DNA of 64,000 bases from Cyanobacteria bacterium SIG30 (GTDB taxonomy: Bacteria; Cyanobacteriota; Vampirovibrionia; Gastranaerophilales; Gastranaerophilaceae). Position 1 is the first letter of the stretch, and each line of letters starts with the position of its first letter. Positions 1 to 57,821 of the stretch are shown piece by piece. The notes under the pieces were generated by a model. The model searched no databases, was not told the origin of the DNA, and saw only the letters and a list, made by a program, of their open reading frames with translations. Location of the stretch: positions 14,372 to 78,371 of the forward strand of contig SUTW01000006.1 in NCBI GenBank assembly GCA_015152475.1, in the 5' to 3' direction. Both the position numbers and the translations under genes were made by a program.

Positions 1-2590
1 AAATGTGTCTTACAGTTTCTGATTGAATTTCAGCCATCATTTCGTTAAATAAATTAAATGCCTCTTTTTTATATTCAATAAGTGGGTCTTTTTGTCCATA
101 TGCAACAAGTCCAATTCCATCTTTTAGGACATCAATATTATTTAAATGGTCAATCCATTTTGCATCAATTACTCTAAGTAAAACATCTTTTTCGATAGAC
201 CTTAAAATGTTGTTATCGGTATTTATTTTTTGTACATCATCTGGATTTCCAAAACGTGTTACGACTGAATTAAAGCTATCTATAATTTCTTTTTCATGTT
301 TATCGTATGCTTCAGTTGCCATTTGTTTAATTTTGGCTTCAATATCACTGTAGCGCAATTTTTTGATTGATTCAACAGTTAAACTATCCATATAGACAAA
401 AACCATACGCAATTCATTAACAAGAAGGTTTAAATCGCTTTCTATATACTCACTTGGAGACATTGATGGTGATAAATTTTTGCCTAAAATTCTATCTACT
501 TCACATTGAATCATGTACTTTATTTGTGAAGATAAATTGGATACTTCAAGTACTTCATGTCTTTGTGCGTAGAATTTCTCCCTTTGTATATTAATTACAT
601 CATCATATTCAAGAACACTTTTTCTTATATCAAAATGATATGTTTCAACTTTCTTTTGTGCTGATTGAATTTGTTTAGATATAAGTGGATTTTCAATAGC
701 CATATCTTCTGGCATATTTAAAATATTCATTAGATTTGTAATTTTTTCGCCACCAAAAATGCGCATTAAGTCATCTTCAAGTGACAAGAAAAATCTTGTT
801 GAACCAGGGTCACCTTGACGTGCGGCACGACCTCTTAATTGGTTATCAATACGTCTTGATTCATGTCTTTCGGTACCAATAACGTGCAAACCACCAAGTT
901 CAACAACTTTGTCATGTTCTTTTTTTGTAATTTCTTGAGCTTCTGATAAAGCTTTTTCTTTTAGTTCATTGTAGTTTGGATTATCAGGTGTAATTCCCTT
1001 TTTTTCTAGTTCTTCTTTTGCAAGATATTCAGGGTTACCACCAAGTAAAATATCTGTTCCTCTTCCTGCCATATTTGTTGCAATTGTAACTGCACCAACA
1101 CGTCCTGCTTGCGCAATAATATAGGCTTCTTTTTCATGGTGTTTGGCGTTTAGTACATTATGTTTAACACCTTTTTTTGTTAAAAGATGAGAAATTAATT
1201 CGGATTTTTCAATACTAACAGTTCCTACAAGAGTTGGTCTTCCAATTTTTGCCATTTGGGCAATTTCTTCAACAACTGCAAGATATTTAGTCGAAATTGT
1301 TTTGTAAATTACATCAGAATAATTCATTCTTATATCAGGTTTATTAGTTGGAATTGAAGTTACAGGTAGGTTGTATATTTTTCCAAATTCAGCTTCCTCT
1401 GTCATTGCAGTACCAGTCATACCGGATAATTTTGGGTATAATCTGAATAGATTTTGGAATGTAATACTTGCAAGAGTTTGGGTTTCGTCCTGAATTGGCA
1501 CGCCTTCTTTCGCTTCAATTGCTTGATGTAAGCCATCAGACCAGCGACGTCCTTCCATAATACGACCTGTAAACTCATCAACTATCATAATTTCGTTATT
1601 TTTGATAACATAATCAGTGTCTTTAACATATAGTTCTTTTGCTCTTAACGCCTGAAGAAGATGATGCGCGTATTGTGTTTCCATATCAAATAATTCTTTT
1701 ACATTTAAAAGTTGTTGGGCTTTATCAATACCATCTTCTGTTAAAATTATGTTTTTATTTTTTTCATCTACTTCGTAATCAGTTATCTTTTCAAGTTTTG
1801 GTGCAATTTTTGACATTAAAAGATAAGTTTCCGCTGATTTTTCAAGTCTTCCGGAAATAATAAGAGGAGTTCTTGCTTCGTCAATTAAAATACTGTCAAC
1901 TTCGTCTATGATGGCATAATTAAATGGTCTTTGTACGCAATTTTCCATTGAAGATGCCATATTATCTCTTAAATAATCAAAACCAAATTCGTTATTTGTA
2001 CCATAAGTAATATCGCAATTATAAGCTTGTCTTTTTAATTCGTATTCATCAGGTGTATAATGCGAATTTGACAGGATTACACCAACGGTTAAGCCTAAAA
2101 ATTCAAATATTTTGCCCATCCAGTCGCGGTCACGTTTTGCAAGGTAATCATTGACTGTAATTATATGGACACCTTTGCCTGTTAGAGCATTAAGATATGC
2201 AGGAAGTGTTGCAACAAGAGTTTTGCCTTCACCTGTTCTCATTTCTGCAATATTGCCGTTGTGTAAAAAAATACCACCAATAAGTTGTACATCAAAATGA
2301 CGCATATTTAAAACACGCTTTCCAGCTTCTCTGACAACAGCAAAAGCGTCTGGTAAAATTTTATCTAATGCTTCTTTTTCTAATTCTAAATCTTTTTTAA
2401 AATTATTACTTTTTTCTCTATTTGCAAGATATTCTTTAAATTCTTGTGTTTTAGCTCTTAATTCATCGTCTGTTAGTTTGCTATATGATTCTTCCAATGA
2501 ATTTATATGCTCAACGATTGGCATAATATTATTAATTTTGCGTTTTTGCGGATCGCCAAAAATTTTAAGCAAAAAATTTGTAAATGACAT
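1..2590 (-). CDS. secA: Preprotein translocase ATPase SecA (partial; C-terminus lies beyond the window start)
   Basis: Minus-strand frame is open from the ATG at 2588-2590 to the window edge. It is absent from the ORF track because no stop falls in the window. My translation starts MSFTNFLLKIFGDPQKRKI...MRHFDVQLIGG...EMRTGEGKTLVATLPAYLNALTGKGVHIITVNDYLAKRD, which is the SecA motor domain. Confidence 0.95.
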   Translation of the reverse strand, partial: MSFTNFLLKIFGDPQKRKINNIMPIVEHINSLEESYSKLTDDELRAKTQEFKEYLANREKSNNFKKDLELEKEALDKILPDAFAVVREAGKRVLNMRHFDVQLIGGIFLHNGNIAEMRTGEGKTLVATLPAYLNALTGKGVHIITVNDYLAKRDRDWMGKIFEFLGLTVGVILSNSHYTPDEYELKRQAYNCDITYGTNNEFGFDYLRDNMASSMENCVQRPFNYAIIDEVDSILIDEARTPLIISGRLEKSAETYLLMSKIAPKLEKITDYEVDEKNKNIILTEDGIDKAQQLLNVKELFDMETQYAHHLLQALRAKELYVKDTDYVIKNNEIMIVDEFTGRIMEGRRWSDGLHQAIEAKEGVPIQDETQTLASITFQNLFRLYPKLSGMTGTAMTEEAEFGKIYNLPVTSIPTNKPDIRMNYSDVIYKTISTKYLAVVEEIAQMAKIGRPTLVGTVSIEKSELISHLLTKKGVKHNVLNAKHHEKEAYIIAQAGRVGAVTIATNMAGRGTDILLGGNPEYLAKEELEKKGITPDNPNYNELKEKALSEAQEITKKEHDKVVELGGLHVIGTERHESRRIDNQLRGRAARQGDPGSTRFFLSLEDDLMRIFGGEKITNLMNILNMPEDMAIENPLISKQIQSAQKKVETYHFDIRKSVLEYDDVINIQREKFYAQRHEVLEVSNLSSQIKYMIQCEVDRILGKNLSPSMSPSEYIESDLNLLVNELRMVFVYMDSLTVESIKKLRYSDIEAKIKQMATEAYDKHEKEIIDSFNSVVTRFGNPDDVQKINTDNNILRSIEKDVLLRVIDAKWIDHLNNIDVLKDGIGLVAYGQKDPLIEYKKEAFNLFNEMMAEIQSETVRHI

Positions 2591-6064: not shown

Positions 6065-6691
6065 ATGAATAATTACAAACAAAAAATCGAAAAAGATGTT
6101 CAGTTAAGAAAATATTTAGACCTTATAAATAAAATTGCAAAGGCTGAGTATAAAATTTTAAATGCACAACATCTTATTGAATATGGAGAATTAGTCAACA
6201 TTGGTATTCAAACAGTTGATATCTTAATTGATAACAATAAAATGAATGAATACAATGAATCTTATATTGCAACTGCAGTTAAATGGGCTATCAGAAATGA
6301 ACTTAGAAGACGTTATAGGTGGCATGGTGTAAGAACTGAAATTGTTGGCAAAGCAAGTGATGAAGACAAAACTGAAATCAGAGAAGCAATTTACAAGACT
6401 ATTTTATCGACAGACGAACTTATTGAATCTGATAAACCATTTGAAGTAAAAGATATCAGAAAAACTCCAGAAGAAAATATTGAATTTATACAAATTTCAC
6501 AAGCAATCAAACATGCTATTTCAAATTTACCAAGACGTGAAAGAGATTTAATTGAGGCAAAATTTTTTAAAGAAAAGAAACTCCATGAACTTTCTGAAGA
6601 ATTTATGATATCACCATCAAGAATTTCTCGTATTATTAAATCAGGTCTTGACAAAATTAAAGAAGAGCTGTCAAAATCGGACATTTTTTAA
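6065..6691 (+). CDS. Sigma-70 family RNA polymerase sigma factor, short group-3 type (SigF/FliA-like)
   Basis: 208 aa. Region 2-like segment AVKWAIRNELRRRYRW and region 4 HTH LPRRERDLIEAKFF..KKLHELSEEFMISPSRISRIIKSGLDKIK. Confidence 0.8.
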   Translation: MNNYKQKIEKDVQLRKYLDLINKIAKAEYKILNAQHLIEYGELVNIGIQTVDILIDNNKMNEYNESYIATAVKWAIRNELRRRYRWHGVRTEIVGKASDEDKTEIREAIYKTILSTDELIESDKPFEVKDIRKTPEENIEFIQISQAIKHAISNLPRRERDLIEAKFFKEKKLHELSEEFMISPSRISRIIKSGLDKIKEELSKSDIF

Positions 6692-6694
6692 GCT

Positions 6695-7987
6695 ATGACA
6701 ATAAATCTTGTAACAAAATATCAAAGCACACCTCTTAAAGGTGTAATTACAATACCAGCCGATAAATCAATTGCACACAGGTCATTAATTATCGGTTCTT
6801 TAACTGGTGGCAAAATCAAAATTTCAAATTATTCAAGTTCAGCTGATTGTATTTCAACACTAAATATTATAAAAAATCTAGGTGCAGAAATTGAATTTTT
6901 GGATGAAAAAACTTTATTACTAGATGCAAAAAATTGTTTTATGGCACCAAATACTTCTTTAGACTGTGGTAACTCAGGTACTTCAATGCGTCTTTTGAGT
7001 GGTATTTGTGCGGGACAAAAATTTTCTTCAGAACTTATTGGAGACATTAGCCTATCAAGACGCCCTATGGCAAGAGTTATCAAGCCACTTGAACTTATGG
7101 GGGCAAAAATATTTTCAAATGACAATAAAGCTCCTTTAAAATTTGAGCCATCTAATTTGTGCGGAATAGATTATGTTTCCAATATTGCATCTGCTCAAGT
7201 TAAATCTTGTATATTGCTTGCAGGACTTAATGCACAAGGTGAAACAAGCGTTGTTGAGCCATATCTTTCAAGAAATCATACTGAATTAATGCTTAAATTT
7301 TTTAATGCAGATATTAAATGCGTTGACAATAAAACAGTTATCAGAAAATCGAATTTAGAACCCAAAAATTTAGATGTTGTTGGTGATATTTCGTCTGCAA
7401 GTTTCTTTATAGTTGCAACACTATTGGTTCCAAATTCTGAAATTATTATTAAAAATGTTGGCATAAATCAAACTCGCTCTGGAATTATTGATGTTTTATT
7501 TAAAATGGGTGCCAATATTGAAATTTTAGATAAAAAAAACGTATGCATGGAAGATGTTGCAGATATTAAAATTAAATATACGGAAAATCTTAAACCGGTT
7601 ACGATTGAAGGCAGTATTATTCCTCGTTTAATTGATGAACTTCCCATAATTGCTGTTTTATTAACTCAGGCTAATGGCACATCAATTGTAAAAGATGCTT
7701 CTGATTTAAGAAATAAAGAAAGCGATAGAATTAAATTAGTTGTAACTCAGCTTAAAAAAATGGGTTGTGATATCGAAGAAACCAATGATGGTTTTATTAT
7801 TAATGGTAAATCAGAACTTAAAGGTGAATGTGATTTTGAAATTGCACATGATCATAGACTTGCTATGAGTTTGTTTGTTGCATCTTTAGTTACTGAAAAA
7901 TCCAGTGTTATTAATGGATTTGAGTGGGTCAATACATCATTTCCGACATTTTTAAATTGTATGTCTGATTTGGGAGTTAATGCATGA
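6695..7987 (+). CDS. aroA: 3-phosphoshikimate 1-carboxyvinyltransferase (EPSP synthase)
   Basis: 430 aa. PADKSIAHRSLII, LDCGNSGTSMRLL, LSRRPM, KESDR and DHRLAMS motifs. Confidence 0.95.
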   Translation: MTINLVTKYQSTPLKGVITIPADKSIAHRSLIIGSLTGGKIKISNYSSSADCISTLNIIKNLGAEIEFLDEKTLLLDAKNCFMAPNTSLDCGNSGTSMRLLSGICAGQKFSSELIGDISLSRRPMARVIKPLELMGAKIFSNDNKAPLKFEPSNLCGIDYVSNIASAQVKSCILLAGLNAQGETSVVEPYLSRNHTELMLKFFNADIKCVDNKTVIRKSNLEPKNLDVVGDISSASFFIVATLLVPNSEIIIKNVGINQTRSGIIDVLFKMGANIEILDKKNVCMEDVADIKIKYTENLKPVTIEGSIIPRLIDELPIIAVLLTQANGTSIVKDASDLRNKESDRIKLVVTQLKKMGCDIEETNDGFIINGKSELKGECDFEIAHDHRLAMSLFVASLVTEKSSVINGFEWVNTSFPTFLNCMSDLGVNA

Positions 7988-8700
7988 TTAAAGCAATAAT
8001 TATTGATGATGATGCTTCAATTTGCGAGCTTGTTAAAATCAATTTAGAACTTTCTGGCTTTACTTGTTTAAGTGCTACAGATCCTAATATTGGTTTTGCA
8101 CTTGTTAAGCAGGAATTACCAGATGTTGTCATCTTGGATGTTATGATGGGTGAAGTTGATGGATATAGTGTTGCACTAAAAATTAGACAAAATGCAACAA
8201 CTCAAAATATACCTATTATCATGTTAACTGCACTTGGTGAATTGAAAGATAAACTTAAAGGATTTGATTCTGGCGTTGATGATTACCTAACAAAACCTTT
8301 TGAAATTGAAGAACTTAAAGCAAGAGTTAGGGTTTTAGCTCAAAGAACAAATAAAAACACCTATTCTTCACTTATAGTTAAAGAAGTTTTGAATATTGGC
8401 GATATTACTTTAATGCCTGAAAAATACGAAGTTAAAATCCTTGATAAAACAGCTAAATTAACACCAATCGAGTTTGAAATTTTAAATATACTTGTACAAA
8501 ATTATGACAAAATTGTACCTTTAAGTACAATGCTTAAAGAAATTTGGGGTTATAGTGAGGATGATAATGTTGACATTATAAGAGTTCACATGAGACATCT
8601 TCGTTCCAAAATTGATAAAATATCATGTAGTGAGAAAAAATATATAAAAACAGTTTACGGTGGCGGTTACAGGCTTTCGCCAACCGGCTCAGATAATTGA
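7984..8700 (+). CDS. OmpR-family response regulator (RpaA/RpaB-like)
   Basis: Receiver domain (DVVILDVMMGEVDGY, IPIIMLTALGE, DDYLTKPFEIEELKARV) plus a winged-helix output domain (LTPIEFEILNIL...VHMRHLRSKI...YGGGYRL). The ATGA start overlaps the aroA stop. Confidence 0.9.
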   Translation: MIKAIIIDDDASICELVKINLELSGFTCLSATDPNIGFALVKQELPDVVILDVMMGEVDGYSVALKIRQNATTQNIPIIMLTALGELKDKLKGFDSGVDDYLTKPFEIEELKARVRVLAQRTNKNTYSSLIVKEVLNIGDITLMPEKYEVKILDKTAKLTPIEFEILNILVQNYDKIVPLSTMLKEIWGYSEDDNVDIIRVHMRHLRSKIDKISCSEKKYIKTVYGGGYRLSPTGSDN

Positions 8701-14612: not shown

Positions 14613-15278
14613 TTAAAATTTTGGAAAAGTTGGAAATGGATTTTTTTGCACTTGCTCATGAAAACTTCCGCCAGCACAAACAATTTCAATAACTTTAAGC
14701 GTAAAATCACGAGCTGCATCAGATTGATTTATGTAAAATTCCTTATTATCCATATGCTTAATTGTCATAATGGCGCTTTGATTTTTTTCAGCAGGCAAAT
14801 ACAAAGAAGCGATTTCTTTATCTAAAAGAATTTTGATTTGCTCATCATAATTATTAGGAGAAACGCCTTCTAAAATTTGATAATAATTACCATTAAGTGC
14901 AAAAATTCGTCCACAAAAAAGTGGAGATGAATCATTAACTCTTTGAAGTGCCTTTGGAACATTGTTAAAACGTGTTGTAAAGCTTAATGTATGCCACAAA
15001 ATATTAACAACAGCAACAGTTTTAGCTGAATCAATTTCACATGTTATATTTTGAACAGGAACATTTCGAACACTAAAAGATTGTTTTAATTGTTCAATAA
15101 TAAGAGCAATATTATCAATAATCTTTGAAAATGCATCACTTGTATTCATTAAAGAATGTTGAAAATCAAGATACTGTTTAAACATATGTACAGCAACAAG
15201 TCCTGCTCTTTCTTGAACAACGGAAGATTTTCTTAATTGGATTTCTCTATTATCAAGACTATCGAAATTATCTTTCAC
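14613..15278 (-). CDS. Hypothetical protein (221 aa)
   Basis: Long ORF with ordinary amino-acid composition. I recognise no family motif. Confidence 0.6.
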   Translation of the reverse strand: MKDNFDSLDNREIQLRKSSVVQERAGLVAVHMFKQYLDFQHSLMNTSDAFSKIIDNIALIIEQLKQSFSVRNVPVQNITCEIDSAKTVAVVNILWHTLSFTTRFNNVPKALQRVNDSSPLFCGRIFALNGNYYQILEGVSPNNYDEQIKILLDKEIASLYLPAEKNQSAIMTIKHMDNKEFYINQSDAARDFTLKVIEIVCAGGSFHEQVQKNPFPTFPKF

Positions 15279-28642: not shown

Positions 28643-29989
28643 ATGAAAAAAATTGCTTTTATACCAATTGATGACAGACCAATTTGTTATACCTTAATTC
28701 AACAAATTACAGCGATTGACAAGGACATTGATCTTTATATGCCAAAAAGAGAATATCTTGGAAATCTAACAAAGAGTTCTAATATAGAAGAAATTTTGTC
28801 ATGGTTAAATAATTTGGACAAAATTGATTATCTAATTTTGTCACTTGACACAATTGCGTATGGCGGATTAATCAATTCAAGAAGAAGCAATGACACCTAT
28901 GATGAAATTATTTCAAGAATAAAAAAACTTGAAAAAATTATAGAAAATAAAAAATGTAAAACATATGCTTTTTCAAGCATAATGCGAATTTCAAACAACA
29001 ATATAAATGAAGAAGAAAAAGAATATTGGAATATTTGGGGCAAAAAAATATTTGAATACTCATACCATACGCATAAAGCAAGAGCTAATAAAACTGAAAC
29101 TTGTATCGAAAACAGGATTCCAAAAGATATTTTGGATGATTATTTAAATACAAGAAATAGAAATTTTTTAGTAAATCAATATTATCTTGAAATAATTAAT
29201 AAATTTGACTATCTTATCTTTTCAAAAGATGACACAGGAAAATTTGGTCTCAATGTTGAAGAAGCAGAGATTTTAAACAAAAAAATAAAAGAAAAGAAAT
29301 TAAATGCAAAAGTAAAAACCGGTGCAGATGAAATCCCGTTAAGTCTTTTATCAAGAGCAATTATGGGTAATTCGAATCTAACAATTAATCCAATATTTAT
29401 TAAAAATGAATCAATAAATTTAATTTCAAAATACGAAGATATTTCAATCAAAGAATGCGTTATGGAACAAATTGAAATTACGGGTGCTAAAACAGACGAT
29501 CAAAATTATGATATAAAATTTTTTATAAACAATTTTGAAGCTGAACAAGGTGACCATGTTCTTGGAGATTTAATAAATAAGAACAATATCATTATTGAAA
29601 AATGCAATACACCTTACTTTATTGCTGATGTAAATAATGCAAATGGCGCAGATGATAATTTAATTGATGCCTTATTTAAAAATAGCATTGATGATAATTT
29701 TTATGGTTATGCAGGTTATAACACAAGTGCAAACACAATTGGATGCGCATTATGCATTGCAATTACAAGATATTTGGCAAAAAGATTTGATGAAAATGCG
29801 TTTAAAAAATTACTTTTTACAAGATTTATGGATGATTGGGCATATCAAGCACATATAAGAAAAACCGAATTTAATAAATTTGAACTTTACGAAAATAAAA
29901 TAAACCGTTTTTTAAAAACAAAATATACAAATCTAAAATATAATAGACCTTGGAACAGAAGTTTTGAAATAGAAATAACAATAGAATAA
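28643..29989 (+). CDS. DUF4127-like protein (uncharacterised family)
   Basis: The N-terminus KIAFIPIDDRPICY and overall length match my recollection of DUF4127 proteins. Not verified by search. Confidence 0.5.
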   Translation: MKKIAFIPIDDRPICYTLIQQITAIDKDIDLYMPKREYLGNLTKSSNIEEILSWLNNLDKIDYLILSLDTIAYGGLINSRRSNDTYDEIISRIKKLEKIIENKKCKTYAFSSIMRISNNNINEEEKEYWNIWGKKIFEYSYHTHKARANKTETCIENRIPKDILDDYLNTRNRNFLVNQYYLEIINKFDYLIFSKDDTGKFGLNVEEAEILNKKIKEKKLNAKVKTGADEIPLSLLSRAIMGNSNLTINPIFIKNESINLISKYEDISIKECVMEQIEITGAKTDDQNYDIKFFINNFEAEQGDHVLGDLINKNNIIIEKCNTPYFIADVNNANGADDNLIDALFKNSIDDNFYGYAGYNTSANTIGCALCIAITRYLAKRFDENAFKKLLFTRFMDDWAYQAHIRKTEFNKFELYENKINRFLKTKYTNLKYNRPWNRSFEIEITIE

Positions 29990-33950: not shown

Positions 33951-34004
33951 AAAATAACCTTTCTCGAACACAATTATTATACATAGAAATATTCTTTTTG
34001 GCAA

Positions 34005-34036
34005 AAATAAAAAAAACCGCACAATTACTTGTGCGG
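34005..34036 (-). terminator. Rho-independent terminator after the 158-aa coiled-coil gene
   Basis: On the minus strand, CCGCACAA-GTAA-TTGTGCGG (8-bp stem, 34017-34036) is followed by a long T-run (34005-34016). Confidence 0.7.
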
Positions 34037-34090
34037 TAACATTTTACATTACTTCCCTGTCCATATGAGCTAAATCTATTTAATTCTTTT

Positions 34091-34567
34091 TTAAGCTAGC
34101 TTAATTGCGCCGTTCTTAATATCTGTGTCCATGGCTTGACCAAGACTTTCATATTCAGCCCTAGCTGCTTTAAGCTGAGTTTCTATTTGCTCTTGTTGTG
34201 CCTCTAATGCCTGTGTTTGAGCATCAGCAATCGCTTGACGTGTTTGGTTTTTAGCATTAAAGATACTTTCTGCATTTTGCTTTTGGTTGTTATAGATCAG
34301 ATTTGCTTGTATGATTTGTTTTTGTGTTGCTAACTGATCATTAACATTGCCCGTGGCAGTTGTGTTAATACCATTGATGTTGTTCATATACGCTGCATTA
34401 ATTACTGCAGTATCGTAGTTGTACTGTAATTGACCCGCTTGTTGTTCGTATGAACTGTTGTTTGCAACTGTTTGAAGTTGTTGACTGATTCTAATTAAAT
34501 CAGATTCAAGTGTGTTGATACGATTTTTGAGCGTCATTTTTCTTAGTGAAATTGTGACCCAGCCCAT
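34091..34567 (-). CDS. Coiled-coil protein, paralog 1 (158 aa, unknown family; conserved termini, Q/N-rich variable core)
   Basis: Strong SD (AAGGAGAG) and its own terminator. Termini are shared with the neighbouring paralog (MGWVTISLRKMTLKNRIN...; ...ETQLKAARAEYESLGQAMDTDIKNGAIKLA). Confidence 0.8.
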   Translation of the reverse strand: MGWVTISLRKMTLKNRINTLESDLIRISQQLQTVANNSSYEQQAGQLQYNYDTAVINAAYMNNINGINTTATGNVNDQLATQKQIIQANLIYNNQKQNAESIFNAKNQTRQAIADAQTQALEAQQEQIETQLKAARAEYESLGQAMDTDIKNGAIKLA

Positions 34568-34797
34568 AGTGTCTCTCCTTTTCTTTGTAATGTAAAAATG
34601 TGTTTACTTGTTTTTTTATTTTTGTTTTATTGCCTCGTGTCTTAATAAAAAAAAATTGCGAAAAAAAAGTGCCTTTTTTATTCCGAATTGTTAAGTTTTG
34701 TTAACAAAGTCGTTTTTCAAAAAGCACTCTTTTTCAAGTCACTACTGAGTTTGAGAGTATTTTAAAAATATTGAATTTATCTATAAATCTATCAAAA

Positions 34798-35265
34798 CTA
34801 TGCTAATTTAATTGCACTTTTTTGAATATCATTATCCATTGCTTGACCTAAACTTTCATATTCAGCATTCGCAGCTTTAAGTTGAGTTTCAACTTGTTCT
34901 TTTCTTGCTTCAATTGCCTTAGTCTTAGCATCAGTTACGTTTTTCAAGCTGCTTGCCTTACTTTCATTAATTGATGAAAATACATTAGCATTCTGGTTGT
35001 AACGTTGTTGAACTTTCATAATTGCTTCTTGTTTTTTACTTGCATCAATTTTTTTGTTTGAATTTATGGCATCCATAGCTTTTTCATAATCAGCATACAT
35101 TAAGCTTTGCTGATAATTTGATGTCAAATTTGTCATTTGTTGTTCTTGTGATGATTCTCTTGAAGCCGTTTGTAATTCTTGGCTAATTTGGATTGCTTCA
35201 GATTCAAGTTGATTGATTCTGTTTTTAAGCTCCATTTTTCTTAATGAAATAGTTGCCCAAGTCAT
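34798..35265 (-). CDS. Coiled-coil protein, paralog 2 (155 aa, unknown family)
   Basis: MTWATISLRKMELKNRIN... and ...ETQLKAANAEYESLGQAMDNDIQKSAIKLA. Differences from paralog 1 in the conserved ends are synonymous where I checked codon by codon (an 11-codon stretch). Confidence 0.8.
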   Translation of the reverse strand: MTWATISLRKMELKNRINQLESEAIQISQELQTASRESSQEQQMTNLTSNYQQSLMYADYEKAMDAINSNKKIDASKKQEAIMKVQQRYNQNANVFSSINESKASSLKNVTDAKTKAIEARKEQVETQLKAANAEYESLGQAMDNDIQKSAIKLA

Positions 35266-35517
35266 AATTTAACTCTCTTTCCCTTAATAATGTGTAACTC
35301 TCGTTCTTAAATTCTTCCTAAAAATTTAATCCCTTACATTAGTAAAGTTTTTTTTGTTTTAAAAATTGCTAAATTGATAAATAATTGTTAAGTTTTGTAA
35401 AGTTAAATTTGAACCTTATGGCAAAAAAGCCCATAAATACAGGACTAAAAAATCTTTATAAATAAAAATATTTGTGGGATAATTAAGCATGTATGTTTAT
35501 TTTTAGAGAGGACAATT

Positions 35518-39121: not shown

Positions 39122-40123
39122 TTAAGGTATTTCGTATTTTAAAATTAAACCATGAGGTACAATATCAAATTGTGTTTCATCAAGCGATAAAAGAATAATT
39201 TCGCCTGTTGAAAGTATAGCACTCCATGCTCCTAAAAAAACTTTTTTGTTTTCTTTTGTGTACCCATATGCGATTGCAATAATTTCATCTTCATTTTCAG
39301 CATTAAAACCAAGAGGTTTAATATCCCATCTGTAAAAATTAAGTCTTAGGGATAATTGATTACTCCAAAAATTTTTAATTGGTTCTTCAAAATCAATCTT
39401 TTCAACAGACAAGGTTTCACAATAATCACTAATGTTGACCTTATAAAGATTAGTTGTAAACAAACCAGTATTTAAAGAGCCAATTTTTTCTTTTACAAGT
39501 ATAAAATTTGCATATTTTGACCAATCAAGAATTGTTAAAGAAGAAAAATAATCATCTTTGACCATCTCAACTCCACTTTTAAGCAAATTTGTTTTTTGAG
39601 CATTTAGTATATTAACTTTTTTGAATCTGTCTTTTTTTGAAAAGCTTTTATCAAGAGGCGCAATATAAAGTTCAGATGCAATTTGGTTTGTTGAAGGGTA
39701 ATAATAGTGAGTAACATATGCAATTTTACTTAAACTTTCATCTGCAACACCCAAAGAATTAACAGATGAGTATTTTTTTACATCAGATAAATTAACTTCC
39801 ATGCCACCTGCTGGAATATTGTATTTTAAAATATAGGAATCTCTTTCTTTAACTTTAGAAAGTTTCTTATTGACCTTGGGTACAATTTTTGGATTTTCTC
39901 TTTCAGTTAACGGAATACTTGATGCACGAATAAGCCACTCATCAGGCGTAATTGGCATCTTTTCAGTGTCATTATTTTTCTTAAATTTTTTCCAAAAAGC
40001 AACACGGTCAAAAAAACTTTTTGACTGAAGTACAGTATTTGGGTCATATTCTTTATTTTTTGCAAAAACACAAGAATTGAATAAAAATAAAAATAAAAAA
40101 GTAAATAAAATGCCCTTTTTCAT
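39122..40123 (-). CDS. Hypothetical secreted protein/lipoprotein (333 aa), last gene of the two-component operon
   Basis: N-terminal signal peptide MKKGILFTFLFLFLFNSCVFA (a possible lipobox Cys). Its start shares a base with the response-regulator stop. Confidence 0.6.
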   Translation of the reverse strand: MKKGILFTFLFLFLFNSCVFAKNKEYDPNTVLQSKSFFDRVAFWKKFKKNNDTEKMPITPDEWLIRASSIPLTERENPKIVPKVNKKLSKVKERDSYILKYNIPAGGMEVNLSDVKKYSSVNSLGVADESLSKIAYVTHYYYPSTNQIASELYIAPLDKSFSKKDRFKKVNILNAQKTNLLKSGVEMVKDDYFSSLTILDWSKYANFILVKEKIGSLNTGLFTTNLYKVNISDYCETLSVEKIDFEEPIKNFWSNQLSLRLNFYRWDIKPLGFNAENEDEIIAIAYGYTKENKKVFLGAWSAILSTGEIILLSLDETQFDIVPHGLILKYEIP

Positions 40124-42481: not shown

Positions 42482-44779
42482 GTGAAAATAGATTTTAAAC
42501 AGGTTAATAGTAATTTAACAAAAACACCAATAACAAGAAGGTGCGAAGGGCAAAGTATCCCTAAAATTACTAAGAACTTGAATTTTACGGGTTTAGAAAA
42601 AATACTTAACAGCAAAACAATTGTTAGAGTGAGTGACACTTTTACAAAAGCCCTTGATGGTCGCTTCCCAAAAATGTTAAGTGAATTTGACGAGCTTACA
42701 AAAGGTTTAAATTTTAGTCAAACAATTACACAAAGTAGAATTACACAGAAAGCTTCAAATGGGCTAGGACAAAATGTAATTGAATTTAGTCAGAGAAACA
42801 TTCTAGGCAAAATTGTTGATAATTTTACTTATTTTCTGAAAGGTTTCTGGCTTGACACAGCAAATGCTGGTTTAGGTGCACTAAAAAAAGTCAAAGGTCT
42901 TAAAAATAGTAATTTTTTGAATAAACTATACAATTCAAAAATACTAACAAATCAAAGAAAAAATAAAGAAGCAACAAACTTATTTTACTCTATCGTTGGT
43001 ATGGCAAAAAAAGGTGCCGAGCTTGATATTGGTTTAAGACAAATAACGTCTGATGTAAAAGTTGCAAATTACAATACATCACTGGCTGATTTTATAGGCG
43101 ACAACCTCAAAAAACCAATGGGTGCATATTCAGCAAAAAGTGAAAGAGCACTAAATAGACTTGCAACAGGAGCTGTTTCGGCGACATTTGTTGGAAAAGA
43201 TTTTTACAATCTTACAATGTATCAAACAAACAACAAAGAAGAAGCTAAAAAAAGTGAAAGAAAACGTTTCAAACAAGAAATAACAAGAATTGCAACAAGT
43301 GCATTTATAAGTTTTAGTGTACTTGGCATATTTTCAAAATGGACAAATAAATCAATGCTTGCGGCAGCTGGTGTTAGCGCTGGCGCTACTTTATTTTCTG
43401 AAGTATTTTCGCGTCTAAAAAATGGTACTCCACTGACCCCGCTCACACCAAATCAAGCAAAAAAAATTCACGATGAAAGACAATTCAAGGGTAAAAATAA
43501 AAAAGATAACAAAAGCAATAATATTGCAAACAACAACAATTATTCAAACGTATATTTGCCAAATGAAATAAAAACCGTTGATGATTACATACAAAGTTTA
43601 AAAACTGGAGCAAAAATTCCATTCTTTATGGCAAATAAAAATATCAGTTTCGAAAATAATCAAAATAATTCACAAATTAAAAACCAAACAAACACTAATG
43701 TACAAAATCCAATAACAAATAAACAAAATAATGAAGCACAAAACAAAAATAATAAATCAATATTAGTCAAAGCAGGAAAAATCTTAGGCGGACTTTTATT
43801 ATTTGGTTTTGCCTGGGATAAAGCTATAAAACACATAGTTGAACCGTTCATTAAAGACTATGGTGACAAAATAAATATCAATAAACTTAAAAAAATTGGA
43901 AATAAGCTAACCAAAAAAGATATCATTGTTACACCAAGTAAAATGGAGGCAACTCTAAAAGCAGTCAAAGAAAGTGGCTACGGAGAACTTGAAAAAACAT
44001 TCAGAAGCAATTTAAATTCATTCAGACAAGGAAAATATTATATTTTAGGCCAAAAAGACACAATACTTGGCATGTTTTTGGCAATGCCTAAAAAAATAAT
44101 AGATTTAGCAAAAGCACCATATAGCGCACTTTGTAATTTAATAAAATATAAACCTGCATGGCACAAAGAAAATCCAAAAAGCGAAATTGGTGAAATTAAA
44201 AATGCTTTGTCAGTTTTATGCAGAGAAGTTACGGGTAAAAATTTAAGTGAAAAAGAAGCAGGAAAACTTGTTCAAAAACGCATAGATTCACTATTTAATG
44301 ATGAAACTATGATTAAATATAAACAATCAAGTTTTGCCATGACAAGCAGAACCCTTGTAACACTTATTGCAAGCTATTTCTTTGTAAATGATTTTAGAAA
44401 CCAAGTCTTAATTGATTCAGCAGGAAAAGATGTTAAAAGAGCAAAAGAAGTAACCAATGAACGTATTGGGCACAAATTGACAAACTTTGTTACAAATGCA
44501 TTCTGGATGAATTTATTTAATACAACATTTGCAAACTCAATTATGAAGAGTCTATTTGCAGCAACACTTGTTCCTGCTGTAACCGAAGTATGCAACGAAA
44601 CATCAATCAGATATTCAATTGGTGTACCTCAAAAGCGCATGGAAAGTAAAGAAGATATCCAAAAATTTGAAGAAAAGAATTACAATAATAAAGGGCTTTA
44701 TGGCAAGTGGATTAGGCTTGTAAGTAAAGCTACAGGTAAAAAACCAATAAGTGAAAAAGCAAAAAGTAGCAAAAAATAA
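42482..44779 (+). CDS. Large hypothetical membrane protein (765 aa) with an Asn-rich low-complexity linker
   Basis: GTG start with AAGGA upstream. Hydrophobic segments (ITRIATSAFISFSVLGIF, AAAGVSAGATLF, ILGGLLLFGFAW, TLVTLIASYFFV, LFAATLVPAV) and an N/Q-rich stretch in the central linker. No recognised family. Confidence 0.65.
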   Translation: MKIDFKQVNSNLTKTPITRRCEGQSIPKITKNLNFTGLEKILNSKTIVRVSDTFTKALDGRFPKMLSEFDELTKGLNFSQTITQSRITQKASNGLGQNVIEFSQRNILGKIVDNFTYFLKGFWLDTANAGLGALKKVKGLKNSNFLNKLYNSKILTNQRKNKEATNLFYSIVGMAKKGAELDIGLRQITSDVKVANYNTSLADFIGDNLKKPMGAYSAKSERALNRLATGAVSATFVGKDFYNLTMYQTNNKEEAKKSERKRFKQEITRIATSAFISFSVLGIFSKWTNKSMLAAAGVSAGATLFSEVFSRLKNGTPLTPLTPNQAKKIHDERQFKGKNKKDNKSNNIANNNNYSNVYLPNEIKTVDDYIQSLKTGAKIPFFMANKNISFENNQNNSQIKNQTNTNVQNPITNKQNNEAQNKNNKSILVKAGKILGGLLLFGFAWDKAIKHIVEPFIKDYGDKININKLKKIGNKLTKKDIIVTPSKMEATLKAVKESGYGELEKTFRSNLNSFRQGKYYILGQKDTILGMFLAMPKKIIDLAKAPYSALCNLIKYKPAWHKENPKSEIGEIKNALSVLCREVTGKNLSEKEAGKLVQKRIDSLFNDETMIKYKQSSFAMTSRTLVTLIASYFFVNDFRNQVLIDSAGKDVKRAKEVTNERIGHKLTNFVTNAFWMNLFNTTFANSIMKSLFAATLVPAVTEVCNETSIRYSIGVPQKRMESKEDIQKFEEKNYNNKGLYGKWIRLVSKATGKKPISEKAKSSKK

Positions 44780-47094: not shown

Positions 47095-47682
47095 ATGACT
47101 TTAGACTATAAAAAAAGCTCTCTAACAAAAATAATCAAAAAAATTAAAGAAAACGACCGCCAGGCCTTAAAAGAATTAATTAAAAGAGAGCAGACAAACA
47201 TATATGCAACACTAAGATATCTAGGGGTAAATCAAGACGAAATATTAGATTTAGTTCAAGATATCTTACTTAAAATTACAAATAATATTCAAAATTTAAA
47301 AAATATTGCAACATACAAATCATGGTCAAATAAAATAATTTTAAGACAATTTTATGATTATTTAAGAAAAAACAAAAAAATAAAAGATAACATAAAAATC
47401 ATAAAAGATGAAGAAGAAAATACAAAGAAAAAAGAAGAAATCCCCGACCACAGTTCAAACCCAATAAAAAATATTTTATCAAACGAACTTGATGAAATAA
47501 TAAAAAACGCAATAAATAATCTGCCTAATCAATATAAAATCGCAATTGTAATGAGAGAATTACAAGGATTAACATATGACCAAATTGCAAAAGCAACAAA
47601 AACAAATGTTGGCACAGTTAAATCCAGAATCGCAAGAGCAAGAGAAAAATTGCAAGAAGAAATAAAACATTACATACATTAA
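47095..47682 (+). CDS. ECF-type sigma-70 family sigma factor
   Basis: Region 2 (DEILDLVQDILLKI...YKSW) and region 4 (IAIVMRELQGLTYDQIAKATKTNVGTVKSRIARAREKL). Confidence 0.85.
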   Translation: MTLDYKKSSLTKIIKKIKENDRQALKELIKREQTNIYATLRYLGVNQDEILDLVQDILLKITNNIQNLKNIATYKSWSNKIILRQFYDYLRKNKKIKDNIKIIKDEEENTKKKEEIPDHSSNPIKNILSNELDEIIKNAINNLPNQYKIAIVMRELQGLTYDQIAKATKTNVGTVKSRIARAREKLQEEIKHYIH

Positions 47683-49613: not shown

Positions 49614-50168
49614 TTATTGCTGAGTTTTACTTGCTTTATTTTGTTTAAATGTCGTTAATAAATTTGAAAGCAAAGCCGCACAAGCACCAAAAAGAACACC
49701 GTTCTTTATTAAACGAGTTCTGCTTGCTTTTTTAGCAGCTTTTTTCGCAGTTTGCAATAATTCATCATTTTTTGTTAATTTAGAAAACATATCATCAAAA
49801 GATTTGAAGGCAGTCTCTTTTAGTGCATTAAATGAATTTGCATCACAATCTTTAAGTTTAGCTTGTTCAAATAAATTTTTAAAATTTTCTATAACGGTTT
49901 TGTATTCAGGTTTTTTTAGTAAATTTTTAGCGCCATCACTAACAATGTTTCCTTTACTTGCACAAGTGAATAAATCCAGAACTTCACTTCTTACAAGATT
50001 TTTAGAAACAGGTAAAAATGACATTACAGCACCAGCGCCACCACCAATTAGGGTACCTGGAAGAGCAACACCAGCTGTGTTTGCAACTGCCCCCAAAAGA
50101 CCAGGACTTGAATTAGAAGCTTGATTAGTAGCTTGCGGAACTGAATTTAACTGTGCATTTTGAACCAT
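49614..50168 (-). CDS. Hypothetical membrane protein (184 aa)
   Basis: Gly/Ala-rich hydrophobic N-terminal segment (GLLGAVANTAGVALPGTLIGGGAGAVMSF) and a C-terminal hydrophobic helix (GVLFGACAALLSNLL). No recognised family. Confidence 0.5.
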   Translation of the reverse strand: MVQNAQLNSVPQATNQASNSSPGLLGAVANTAGVALPGTLIGGGAGAVMSFLPVSKNLVRSEVLDLFTCASKGNIVSDGAKNLLKKPEYKTVIENFKNLFEQAKLKDCDANSFNALKETAFKSFDDMFSKLTKNDELLQTAKKAAKKASRTRLIKNGVLFGACAALLSNLLTTFKQNKASKTQQ

Positions 50169-50218
50169 AAAACACCTTTACCTTACAAAAGAATTAAGTA
50201 GGATAATAAAATAAATTG

Positions 50219-51508
50219 CTAAAAAGAATTGATAATTGTTAAGATATCAGAAAAATTGTAACATTCTTTATTTATAAAAATATTAGCTTTGGTGTGCTTT
50301 TTAACATCCTTTAAAGTTAAGCCATCTAAAAATTCATCAGAACCTTCTTTGAAAACTAATGAAGGAAGCACAATGTTTTCCAAGTCTCTATTTTTAATAG
50401 CTTCTATAATATCAAAACCTGTTAAAAGCCCTGCAACAGTAATTTGATTACCGAAAAATTTATTTTTTGCAACAAGCAATTCGATTTCAAGATTTTTAAC
50501 GTTAATCATATTCTTCATTGTTTCAAAAGCTCTAATCCCACTCTCGGAAATCAAAAATGTTAATTTAACAGGATTTTTTAAAGATTTTTTTAATTTTTTT
50601 ATGTCCTTCTTTAAGCTATCGAGAAATAGTCTTGTTGTTCCAACACCATCTTCAATTTGCAAAAACTTACCGTAATATTTTTTCTCCGGAAAATCCATAT
50701 CAGCAAGTAAAAAGAATTCATCAGAAACCATAGCGATATTCTTTTTAATATCATTATTAAATTCTTCAACAAGTTTAATTGTTTGAATTGCAATATTTTT
50801 ATCAACAGTTTTAATGTCTTCTTTTCTGAATTTTGAAATTCCTACAGGAACAATTGCAAGAGATTTTAAATTTTTAAATTTTTTAAGATCGTCAAGTGTT
50901 CTTTTAAGTTCAGCTCCGTCGTTTATTCCAGGGCACAACACAACCTGCCCATGGAAATCAATTTTTAATTTTTTTAATTTTTCTAAATCATCTAAAATAC
51001 TACCAGCTCTTTTGTTTCTAAGCAATTTTTCACGAACGGTTGGATTGGTTGCATGAATTGAAACAAAAAGGGAACTTGGATGCGTTTCTTCAATTCTTGC
51101 CCAATCAGATTTTGTTAGATTAGTAAGTGTCACATAAGTTCCTTGTAGATAAGAAAGACGCCAATCGTCATCTTTAACATAAAGAGAATCTCTAAGTCCC
51201 TTCGGTTGCTGATCAACGAAACAAAAAACGCAATGATTAGCACAAGGTTTAATCCCATTAAAAACTGCACATTCAAAAGAAATACCAAGGTCATCCTCAA
51301 AATCTTTTTCTATTTCAAAAATTTCAATTTCACCATTTTTACGTTCAAGTTCAATCTCGATTAATTCGTTTTGAATTAAAAAACTATAATCGATTATATC
51401 TCGAGGTTTTATACCGTTTAAAGAAAGGATTATATCTCCTTTTTCAAAAGCTAATTCATCTGCAATTGAATCTATATCAACATTCGAAATTATTGCCCCT
51501 TTTCGCAT
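50219..51508 (-). CDS. PDZ-radical SAM-DUF512-type protein
   Basis: N-terminal PDZ-like segment (ELAFEKGDIILSLNGIKPRDIIDY), CxxxCxxC cluster motif (CANHCVFCFVDQ) and a long C-terminal domain. Confidence 0.75.
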   Translation of the reverse strand: MRKGAIISNVDIDSIADELAFEKGDIILSLNGIKPRDIIDYSFLIQNELIEIELERKNGEIEIFEIEKDFEDDLGISFECAVFNGIKPCANHCVFCFVDQQPKGLRDSLYVKDDDWRLSYLQGTYVTLTNLTKSDWARIEETHPSSLFVSIHATNPTVREKLLRNKRAGSILDDLEKLKKLKIDFHGQVVLCPGINDGAELKRTLDDLKKFKNLKSLAIVPVGISKFRKEDIKTVDKNIAIQTIKLVEEFNNDIKKNIAMVSDEFFLLADMDFPEKKYYGKFLQIEDGVGTTRLFLDSLKKDIKKLKKSLKNPVKLTFLISESGIRAFETMKNMINVKNLEIELLVAKNKFFGNQITVAGLLTGFDIIEAIKNRDLENIVLPSLVFKEGSDEFLDGLTLKDVKKHTKANIFINKECYNFSDILTIINSF

Positions 51509-56297: not shown

Positions 56298-57821
56298 TTA
56301 GCTATATTTTAGAACATTCAACGGAATACTAAACCAAGAACCTCTATTTGGAGTAAAGCTTAATTTCTTTTGAAGTAACAATTCGCCACAATCCGTGTTA
56401 TTTGAAATATTTATTTCAGGGTCACAAATAATTTCAAAATTATATAATTTCATAAGTCTTTTTGTTGTTGGCAAATCAGCATGTTTAGGGTCAATATTTG
56501 TATTAATTTTTTGAAGAATTAAATCAGTTAAATCAGTTGCACCATAATCCTCAGGGTTTTCTTTAACGTGTCTATTTAAACCTTGAGCAAATGGACCAAC
56601 TAAAACAACTTTATTGATACAATCATTGATTTTATTGATTGAAATTAATGAAACGGCATTAGCGTAATCATTAACCGCATGAATTCTTGCTTCTTTAATT
56701 TTATCTGGGTCAAGAACTTTTTTATTTAAAGTGAATTTTAATTTATCATCTTTATCTGATTCAATTTCTTCAAAATACTTGCATTTTTTAACCTTTTCAA
56801 CTAAAGCACCGTCTTTTTTAGAAATATACATAAAATCATCAGCAACAATTCGTGCATCACCAATTTCAAGTGCCAGATTAATTAGTTCATTGTATTCGTA
56901 TTTACTTACATCTAAATCTAGCGCTTCAAAGAAACATTTTAAATGCGATTTAACACTTACACCTTGTCTTCCGATTTTTCCAAGTATTGGAATTAATTCA
57001 ACAAGTTCTTTGTTGTCGTTTGCGGTTAGTTTTCTAAGTTGTTCATTTGGATTGTCAGATTTTAAAATATCACTTACGGTTTTTTTAATTTTGTCATACA
57101 TTAAAACGTTACCCGTTAAGTAACTACTGCTTTCTGAAGTTTCAAATTCAACAACAGGATATTGCTCATGACCTTTAACTTTAATATCGACACTACCAAA
57201 GCCACCACCTGTCATAATACCCATAATATAATCACCAGGTTTTAGCATATCTTTATCGGCCATCTTTTTTGCAATACCCAAGCCGGTACCACCTAAGTCT
57301 TTTGTAACTTCAAGTTCAAAATCATCTGAAACATTAAAAGATACTGTTCTGTCATCGCCTGCTTTAATTGCTTTTTCATAAGCCTTAAAATCTATATTTT
57401 CTAATGTATCACCATAGGCATTCTTAAGGTTTGGGATAAATGCAATTCTATCATCCTTACACATTGTAAATGTTGTTCCTGGAACAAAAACGGCAACACC
57501 AGTTAATTTTGAATCTCTGGTGCTTTCAAATTGTATTTCACCATTTTTTTCTTTTTCAACAACTTCATCATGAACATTTTTAATTACGTCATGTAATTTT
57601 GAAATAAAATCAGATTGCCCTTCATCATATGTTCTTGTATAAGTGTCGTAACAAGAAAAACCTCTTGAAGTTGTATTTAACGTCCCATCAGTTTTATAAA
57701 TTACTTCTCCACTTTCTGATTTAACAAGTGCTTTCATAGTTCCTTTTGGATTACTAGCACCAATGTCAATAATAATTTTATGACCAAAGCTTGCACGTGG
57801 ATTAATGTTGTTAATGCGCAT
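56298..57821 (-). CDS. Hypothetical protein with sugar-kinase/actin (ASKHA, ROK-like) fold signatures (507 aa)
   Basis: Motif order IIIDIGASN (phosphate 1), GVAVFVPG, DLGGTGLGIA, IMTGGGFGSV, VVLVGPFAQG. No ROK zinc-Cys motif. There is a large insertion in the C-terminal half. Confidence 0.45.
   Translation of the reverse strand: MRINNINPRASFGHKIIIDIGASNPKGTMKALVKSESGEVIYKTDGTLNTTSRGFSCYDTYTRTYDEGQSDFISKLHDVIKNVHDEVVEKEKNGEIQFESTRDSKLTGVAVFVPGTTFTMCKDDRIAFIPNLKNAYGDTLENIDFKAYEKAIKAGDDRTVSFNVSDDFELEVTKDLGGTGLGIAKKMADKDMLKPGDYIMGIMTGGGFGSVDIKVKGHEQYPVVEFETSESSSYLTGNVLMYDKIKKTVSDILKSDNPNEQLRKLTANDNKELVELIPILGKIGRQGVSVKSHLKCFFEALDLDVSKYEYNELINLALEIGDARIVADDFMYISKKDGALVEKVKKCKYFEEIESDKDDKLKFTLNKKVLDPDKIKEARIHAVNDYANAVSLISINKINDCINKVVLVGPFAQGLNRHVKENPEDYGATDLTDLILQKINTNIDPKHADLPTTKRLMKLYNFEIICDPEINISNNTDCGELLLQKKLSFTPNRGSWFSIPLNVLKYS

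Follow-up and report, generated by a model that had tools for sequence, protein, structure and literature searches.

Tandem orphan genes of a Gastranaerophilales genome encode predicted helical hairpins with conserved termini and a variable tip

Two neighbouring genes on the minus strand of a 64,000-nucleotide stretch of DNA from Cyanobacteria bacterium SIG30 (the entire stretch is hereafter called the window) encode proteins, here named P1 and P2, that are real, expressed-looking and selectively maintained orphan helical hairpins. They belong to a family that has no detectable relative and no annotation, and whose fold and design principle are already known. Most lineage-specific genes of Gastranaerophilales are unannotated, and this family is abundant and nearly ubiquitous in the loci surveyed. 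Its design has otherwise been met in filament subunits that self-assemble. We tentatively favor the reading, held with less than even confidence, that P1 and P2 may be self-assembling structural subunits in which a conserved base would drive assembly and a variable tip would be exposed.

P1 (158 amino acids with the stop included; positions 34091..34567, minus strand) and P2 (155 amino acids with the stop included; 34798..35265, minus strand) were first noticed in a reading of the letters of the window, hereafter the original prediction, which described them as coiled-coil paralogs with a flagellin-like layout. Its counts held when they were repeated: both open reading frames (ORFs) lie on the strand and at the positions just given, 230 bp apart, with 25/33 identical residues at the N-terminus and 30/39 at the C-terminus, and each protein has a single Trp, at position 3, and no Cys, Pro or His. 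Over their whole length, the two proteins are 49% identical (BLASTP, E=7e-45). P1 is matched by the hidden Markov model (HMM) of the family with E=5e-52, and P2 is identical to the database record P0010, ‘hypothetical protein, Cyanobacteria bacterium SIG30’. Relative to the remaining proteins of the window, the pair shows a 2-5 fold enrichment in A, Q and N and contains less F, V, P, H and C.

The conserved ends of the two genes do not look like the product of a recent exchange. In the shared AEYESLGQAMD block, codons differ by synonymous changes only (CTT/TTA, GCC/GCA, GAC/GAT), and the synonymous divergence (dS) of the termini is 1.3-1.4, compared with a nonsynonymous divergence (dN) of 0.16-0.23. 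The duplication must therefore be old, with similarity kept by purifying selection and not by recent gene conversion, as had been argued from the codons. In a distance tree, P1 groups with the downstream gene (1513..1989) and P2 with the upstream gene (852..1325) of a pair at another locus, L001, and thus the duplication is older than the split of those genomes. A different tandem pair, of independent origin in the same tree, is retained in a clade of at least 10 species.

A word-indexed search returned 22 close homologs of P1 and P2, none of which carries a Pfam domain or any name except that of P2 itself (P0010). Among 1.84 billion cluster representatives searched exhaustively with HMMER, 284 match at E<=1e-3 and 91 at E<=1e-10, with lengths of 145-344 amino acids and a typical length of 153-162 amino acids for most members; none of the database records examined names a member beyond ‘hypothetical protein’. 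The layout of conserved termini around a variable core, first seen in the two paralogs, proved general to the 22 close homologs and more than 130 distant ones. Both termini are kept in all full-length members, and extra length is always located in the middle.

Among the 22 close homologs, the N-terminus follows the pattern M-[GTSA]-W-x-x-x-S-x-R-K-M-x-L-K-x-R...L...S-Q..Q, in which M1, W3, R9, L13, K14, R16, L20, S28, Q29 and Q32 are invariant. The C-terminus follows the pattern L-E-A-x-Q-E-Q-I-E-T-Q-L-K-A-A-R-A-E-Y-E-S-L...D-I-K-x-G-A-I-K-L, with Q127, Q131, A137, E138, A145 and I150 invariant. The middle region of these proteins is barely alignable, and insertions there yield proteins of 181-235 amino acids. 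Two main flavors of the family exist, one with W at position 3 and a C-terminal ...I-K-L-A, and another with Y or F at position 3 and ...A-P-K-F-x. Residue 3 and the tail motif, which belong to opposite ends of the chain, co-vary with counts of 124:7 versus 2:73 among 230 sequences, without phylogenetic correction.

Selection on the three regions was estimated from about 120 ortholog pairs, all of which have a dS below 1.5. At the median, dN/dS amounts to 0.04 in residues 1-35 and 0.09 in the C-terminal 45 residues, as compared with 0.18 in the core, which changes 2-4 times faster than the two ends and is still constrained. The original prediction had named low-complexity drift in a non-expressed gene as an outcome that would speak against it, and each of the three regions has a ratio well below 1. 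As a separate observation, the dS of orthologs over codons 1-35 (35265..35161 and 34567..34463 in the window, minus strand) is consistently lower than that of the rest of the gene, for example 0.10 versus 1.52, which suggests nucleotide-level constraint or local recombination.

An AlphaFold2 model of P1 built with the family alignment contains helices at residues 2-66 and 75-157, with a mean predicted local distance difference test score (pLDDT) of 88.2. With high confidence, P1 is predicted to be a single antiparallel two-helix hairpin that forms a rod about 10 nm long. The model brings the N- and C-termini together, as had been anticipated, and places both at one end of the hairpin, the base, where conservation extends to the very first and the very last residue, while the fast-evolving tip lies at the opposite end. 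The C-terminal arm of the model is approximately 18 residues longer than the N-terminal arm, and consequently the most conserved stretch (ESLGQAMD.DIK.GAIKLA) has no partner inside the monomer.

Longer relatives appear to keep the rod and to elaborate the tip, where as many as about 190 residues are added. In the AlphaFold2 model of a 330-amino-acid relative (P0088), the hairpin arms span residues 2-85 and 236-329 with pLDDT above 90, and the tip carries a 150-residue beta-rich insert with pLDDT below 50. Some other relatives have tips that are Met/Gly-rich or resemble glycine zippers. Copy number is variable as well. The family occurs in 1, 2, 3 or 5 tandem copies per locus, and the family HMM finds only two among the six-frame ORFs of this window. 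One locus (L005, 7526..11027) carries five tandem copies of 153, 220, 235 and 157 amino acids plus a cut-off fifth, and another (L006, 290..5785) has three copies of 276, 403 and 330 amino acids with repeat-rich or beta-rich inserts. The survey of homologs that the original prediction had called for thus revealed one to five tandem copies with fixed termini and a variable middle. In addition, one ortholog of the family is seen on 328 contigs, and divergent members occur at two unlinked loci (L018 and L046) within one metagenome-assembled genome (MAG).

To our knowledge, no member of the Gastranaerophilales, which are widespread in the gut, has been cultured. One genome of each GTDB species was scanned with the narrower of two alignments (A1), since the broad one (A2) was too diverse, and 40 loci were returned. 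The informative organism labels among them are Candidatus Gastranaerophilales, Galligastranaerophilus, ‘Vampirovibrio sp.’ and Melainabacteria, from animal-gut MAGs; the labels of the other loci are generic (‘uncultured bacterium’, ‘uncultured Gammaproteobacteria’), with the exception of a single weak match in Veillonella that is at chance level. As found so far, the family is specific to Gastranaerophilales/Vampirovibrionia, the non-photosynthetic cyanobacteria of the gut, where the range of the distant subfamilies is inferred solely from shared promoter, G+C content and sample origin. A phage origin was considered and rejected, as searches of IMG/VR and GenBank phages revealed no relatives.

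No characterized family matches P1 or P2 in Pfam, NCBIfam, PHROGs, PADLOC, PDB sequences or Foldseek. Specifically, scans of both proteins against Pfam and NCBIfam gave nothing above cut-off, PHROGs and PADLOC searches were negative, the best PDB sequence for the family profile had E=0.32, and the locus has no Rfam match. When 136 aligned members were scanned singly, Pfam returned scattered coiled-coil noise below cut-offs (DUF5320, FlaC_arch, APG6_N, SPAM, Prefoldin_2 and others), and the flagellin, EspA, PspA and Snf7 families were not among the 25 most frequent matches at E<=1. The P1 model fares similarly in Foldseek, with best E-values of 0.044 (PDB) and 0.013 (BFVD) and only generic hairpins among its matches, including MIC60, chemoreceptors, colicin R-domains, Vipp1 and tape-measure proteins. 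The dismissal of flagellin and of PspA/Vipp1 in the original prediction is borne out in that neither has a sequence relationship or a significant structural relationship to the pair, and the same holds for the filament proteins of type III secretion systems and for all other families.

Three groups of known proteins nevertheless deserve comparison. First, flagellin, FlgL and FlgK share with the family the conserved, paired terminal helices, a variable middle at the far end of the stalk that takes up beta-rich domains, the occurrence of tandem paralogs, and an A/Q/N/T/S-rich composition without Cys. However, flagellin domains D0 and D1 form a four-helix stalk from two N-terminal and two C-terminal segments, whereas P1 and P2, at 155 amino acids, have one helix per arm. 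They also lack the Flagellin_N, Flagellin_C and rod-protein signatures of flagellar axial proteins, and neither is matched by Flagellin_N (PF00669) or Flagellin_C (PF00700) even at E<=10. Gene neighborhoods, which we compared in eight distinct Pfam-annotated contexts and by clustering the neighbors of 44 loci within +/-6 kb, contain no fliD, fliS or flaG in the 44 loci. The idea that P1 and P2 are flagellins (FliC/FlaA) was rejected, as sequence signature, helix count and gene linkage all fail. The flagellin-like layout therefore stands as a description of conserved termini and a variable middle across the family, and fails as a statement of membership. Against the PDB, the top Foldseek matches of the 330-amino-acid relative are FlgL chains from the Salmonella hook-filament junction and several flagellins, all of them non-significant (E>=0.07, TM-score about 0.25, root-mean-square deviation about 15-18 A). 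This modeled likeness is a resemblance of topology and no evidence of homology.

Second, the needle and filament subunits of type III secretion systems (PrgI/MxiH and EspA) polymerize via their termini, and the middle of EspA is variable and surface-exposed. Like P1, each of these subunits is a single helical hairpin, although the family has no Pfam match to them. No injectisome genes turned up around family loci; their genome-wide presence was not searched. Third, PspA, Vipp1 and ESCRT-III proteins resemble P1 in their long helical-hairpin core and in an N-terminus that starts with MG and an aromatic or hydrophobic residue. Vipp1 structures are found among the Foldseek matches of P1 with probabilities of 0.8-0.9, TM-scores of 0.40-0.46 and E-values of 0.27-0.4. 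However, P1 stops at the hairpin, with no equivalent of helices 4-5, from which ESCRT-III polymers are built. Membership in this group was rejected, since there is neither a PspA_IM30 or Snf7 profile match nor a counterpart of helices 4-5.

By analogy with flagellins, the needle and EspA, we propose for P1 and P2 the same assembly logic. The conserved base, including the 18-residue unpaired overhang at the C-terminus, would serve as the assembly interface, and subunits, as homo-oligomers or P1/P2 hetero-oligomers, would line up laterally to build a bundle, tube, filament or coat. Their tips would point outward, free to vary in sequence and to display extra domains. An envelope or extracellular location is suggested by composition and design only. 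Expression might be controlled by an RpaB-type regulator that would activate P1 and P2, together with many orphan genes of the lineage, via HLR1-like repeats located about 60 nt upstream of the predicted transcription start. If such a polymer is indeed surface-exposed or extracellular, it would represent a new and very small building block of bacterial filaments, and one that host immunity and phages would be likely to encounter.

Several observations weigh against this proposal. Long helical hairpins are common in proteins that do not polymerize, and the Foldseek matches of P1 are generic. No signal peptide is present in the translations of P1 or P2. The broadly flagellin-like composition of the pair is weak evidence, and the co-variation of residue 3 with the tail may merely mark two clades. 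No gene-wide positive selection on the core was detected across the approximately 120 ortholog pairs, and with a core dN/dS of about 0.18 the suggestion that the proteins are antigenically variable is unsupported. A link to export genes, which the original prediction had wished to see checked, also did not materialize near the family: no flagellar, pilus or secretion gene was found in the eight annotated contexts or the 44 loci. Finally, the RpaB-type regulator scores below its family cut-off, and the transcription start used to position the repeats is only predicted.

A more specific version of the proposal, in which the family would be the subunit of a minimal, flagellin-analogous and hitherto unknown surface filament with the termini as its core and the tips, which in some species are entire beta-rich domains, as its decoration, exported by a reduced flagellar type III apparatus (flhB, fliI, flgG), strikes us as improbable. 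Complete flagellar gene sets were reported for 3/9 Gastranaerophilales genomes (PMC4040986), and another study found them in about 25% of these organisms, with the remainder keeping flhB, fliI and flgG (bioRxiv 10.64898/2026.04.24.720558). Should the leftover flagellar genes export such a subunit, their retention would be explained.

A doubtful but serious alternative to self-assembly is that P1 and P2 function as intracellular coiled-coil adaptors or scaffolds. The base would then dock on one conserved partner, such as a membrane complex, the division or envelope machinery, or nucleic acid, and the rod and tip would act as a spacer or as a carrier of variable modules, with no polymer being formed. 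The absence of a signal peptide and of nearby export genes fits this possibility, as do the purifying selection over the whole gene, the many intracellular proteins among the generic hairpin matches, and the conserved basic cluster R9, K10, K14 and R16 (the N-terminal 35 residues of P1 have an isoelectric point of 10.9). Likewise, the Met/Gly-rich or glycine-zipper tips of some relatives could touch a membrane. However, amplification to five tandem copies and the diversity of tip inserts would be unusual for an adaptor with a single partner, and a conserved neighboring partner gene was not found in the 44 loci, where clustering of neighbors returned housekeeping genes only.

It seems unlikely that the family is a coat or stress protein of the phasin or late embryogenesis abundant (LEA) type, in other words an abundant amphipathic helix that covers a granule or droplet or protects macromolecules. 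Such a protein might well be small, all-helical, rich in Q, N and A, devoid of Cys and Pro, present as several paralogs, and controlled by one promoter class that is common to many orphan genes, as in a stress regulon. A loose coat does not call for termini that are conserved to their very ends or for a length that mostly stays within 153-162 amino acids, features that point to a defined geometry, and neither the core dN/dS of about 0.18 nor the globular, beta-rich inserts agree with it.

Weaker still is the possibility that P1 and P2 are components or chaperones of a type III export apparatus. FliJ, YscO and SpaM are coiled-coil hairpins of about 150 amino acids, close to P1 and P2 in size and fold. 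Many Gastranaerophilales keep flhB, fliI and flgG (bioRxiv 10.64898/2026.04.24.720558). Pfam SPAM (PF02090) matches 9/136 members with a best E of 6e-4. These matches are far under the cut-off (P1 scores 7.1 bits where 35 bits are required) and occur amid other coiled-coil noise. Genes of the FliJ type are single-copy and reside in fliHIJ-type operons. The family instead has tandem copies, large tip inserts and no adjoining export genes, and membership in this group was set aside on account of the sub-cut-off matches, the multi-copy genes and the lack of fliH or fliI neighbors. Least of all are these non-functional or drifting low-complexity ORFs, a notion that a Q/N-rich core and the lack of annotation anywhere might invite and that is refuted by dN/dS well below 1 in three regions across about 120 ortholog pairs, by a conserved promoter, ribosome-binding site and terminator, and by the presence of one ortholog on 328 contigs.

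The regulatory sequences of the pair are as distinctive as its proteins. From its sequence features, each gene appears to be transcribed as a separate unit, from a conserved promoter that is dedicated to it. Upstream of P2, two HLR1-like repeats (TTTACAAA-AC-TTAACAAT; 35384..35401, minus strand) match (G/T)TTACAWW-NN-(G/T)TTACAWW at 15/16 positions and are followed 16 nt later by a GCAATTT box in the -35 region (35363..35369, minus strand). A -10-like TACTAAT (35338..35344, minus strand) presumably corresponds to the TATATA of the class, with which it is in register, and a 5′ untranslated region of about 70 nt is predicted. Upstream of P1, the repeats (TTAACAAA-AC-TTAACAAT; 34687..34704, minus strand) match at 14/16 positions, and a GGCACTTTT box (34665..34673, minus strand) occupies the register of the class GGCAATTTT box, with a position weight matrix (PWM) match of 40.2 bits at 34707. 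The probable -10-like element here is TATTAAG (34641..34647, minus strand), which lies 25 nt past the box, as for P2 and the class consensus.

The strong Shine-Dalgarno sequence of P1 (AAGGAGAG; 34573..34580, minus strand) and the clean terminator after the pair, both noted in the original prediction, were recovered, the latter being an intrinsic terminator 3′ of P1 with a 9-bp stem, 5 G-C pairs and a T-run (34016..34037, minus strand). The Shine-Dalgarno sequence of P2 is weaker than that of P1, and AGGAG-type sites are found upstream of nearly all family genes.

The same element precedes 49 family genes at other loci, with the form GTTACAAA-AC-TTAA(C/T)AWW, spacer, (G)GCAATTTT, and the spacer between repeats and box is 16 nt in 42/49 of these promoters. 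Within the window, the full element is found before P1 and P2 only, and in about 0.7 Mb of loci it likewise preceded family genes only. However, the idea that the promoter is exclusive to the family was contradicted, and rejected, when metagenome contigs were scanned for exact matches to the pattern. Among the matches listed, 100/103 usable sites precede non-family genes, nearly all of them small orphans, and the consensus of 104 further promoters, in which the repeats and the box are conserved, has a -10-like TATATA 25 nt past the box and then TAAGAG. Recurrent non-family genes behind the element, among the same matches, encode families of 95 amino acids (MLFT...FFYGANRFG), 60-70 amino acids (...RFTVEDLLKW), 81 amino acids and 169 amino acids, and membrane proteins of about 500 amino acids and a CopG-type protein are also represented. 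Since the element precedes many other orphan genes, the family must be part of a large lineage-specific regulon. The class as a whole, composed of HLR1-like repeats, a GGCAATTTT box and TATATA, is lineage-wide, with instances in the window at 35401..35338 and 34704..34641 (minus strand) and in further loci (L053-L172).

HLR1 is a cyanobacterial site bound by RpaB that consists of two 8-nt direct repeats, (G/T)TTACAWW, 2 nt apart (PMC6525291), and in Synechocystis RpaB activates transcription when the center of the repeats lies between -66 and -45. If transcription of P1 and P2 begins approximately 7 nt past the -10-like box, an assumed position, then the center of their repeats is at about -60. 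The promoters of the pair resemble RpaB promoters in having two 8-nt repeats with a 2-nt gap, which would lie inside the activating range if the assumed start holds. They differ in that the second repeat has A, and not T, as its third base, in the addition of an invariant GGCAATTTT box in the -35 region, and in belonging to a non-photosynthetic host. The window encodes a candidate to bind these repeats, a response regulator of the OmpR family (7984..8700, plus strand), whose best NCBIfam match is RpaB with 186.9 bits against a cut-off of 330, and for which MtrA and PhoB score close behind. As judged from this promoter class, a relative of cyanobacteria that does not photosynthesize would have a large, RpaB-like regulon made up of orphan genes. 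This, in turn, bears on the role of the regulator before photosynthesis.

Other promoter types were also considered. The arrangement of HLR1-like repeats, GGCAATTT and TATATA differs from the sigma-28 pattern TAAA-N15-GCCGATAA of flagellar genes, and neither spacing nor sequence agrees with a reading of the promoter as sigma-28 or sigma-54, both of which were rejected. A near-consensus sigma-70 promoter, TTGCCA-17-TATAAT, is located just past the P1 terminator and ahead of rfbB (34004..33976, minus strand). Its presence indicates that the family promoter is a distinct class, and its position makes it most likely that the rfbB-type gene starts at ATG 33953 and not at GTG 34022. In many family promoters (loci L011-L044, for example upstream of 7497 in L018), the perfect palindrome GTATATAC occurs once or twice, immediately upstream of the HLR1-like repeats. 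The copies are sometimes 17 nt apart, are absent from both promoters of the window, and may represent the site of a second regulator.

The genes that flank the pair have housekeeping roles. On its 3′ side lie genes for an RmlB-type dehydratase, an RmlA-type nucleotidyltransferase, L31, ThyX and RF1, and the other flank contains genes for a CitMHS permease, RuvB, TsaE and TsaB. The placement of rmlA/rmlB directly downstream, and its use as a hint of a surface role, came from the original prediction. The adjacency recurs, with rfbC, rfbB and rfbA downstream of the family in 14-16/44 loci, but it may reflect inherited gene order. A uridine-kinase-like protein and a GlcD-like oxidase are, with the rml genes, the recurrent neighbors of the family.

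In 17 loci, a pair of genes for an extracytoplasmic function (ECF) sigma factor and its anti-sigma factor is located about 3 kb from a family gene, and PWM scans of these loci found no promoter of the family class upstream of the pair. The window itself encodes two alternative sigma factors (6065..6691 and 47095..47682, plus strand), one group-3-like and the other ECF. The group-3-like factor is divergent and matches FliA/WhiG and SigB/F/G in part, with scores far under the cut-off, and the apparent counterparts of the ECF factor are those found near a family gene in the 17 other loci.

Elsewhere in the window, an ORF at 28643..29989 (plus strand) encodes a DUF4127 protein, and four sizeable ORFs of 765, 507, 333 and 221 amino acids have no Pfam match (42482..44779, plus strand; 56298..57821, 39122..40123 and 14613..15278, minus strand). 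A further orphan ORF of 184 amino acids (49614..50168, minus strand), without a Pfam or NCBIfam match, begins with a Q/N-rich stretch, after which comes a segment that resembles a glycine zipper (...LPGTLIGGGAGAV...). Upstream of this ORF lies a partial look-alike of the family promoter that fails the full matrix (50250..50205, minus strand), and a PGTLIGG segment like that of its product is located at the hairpin tip of a distant family member (P0166).

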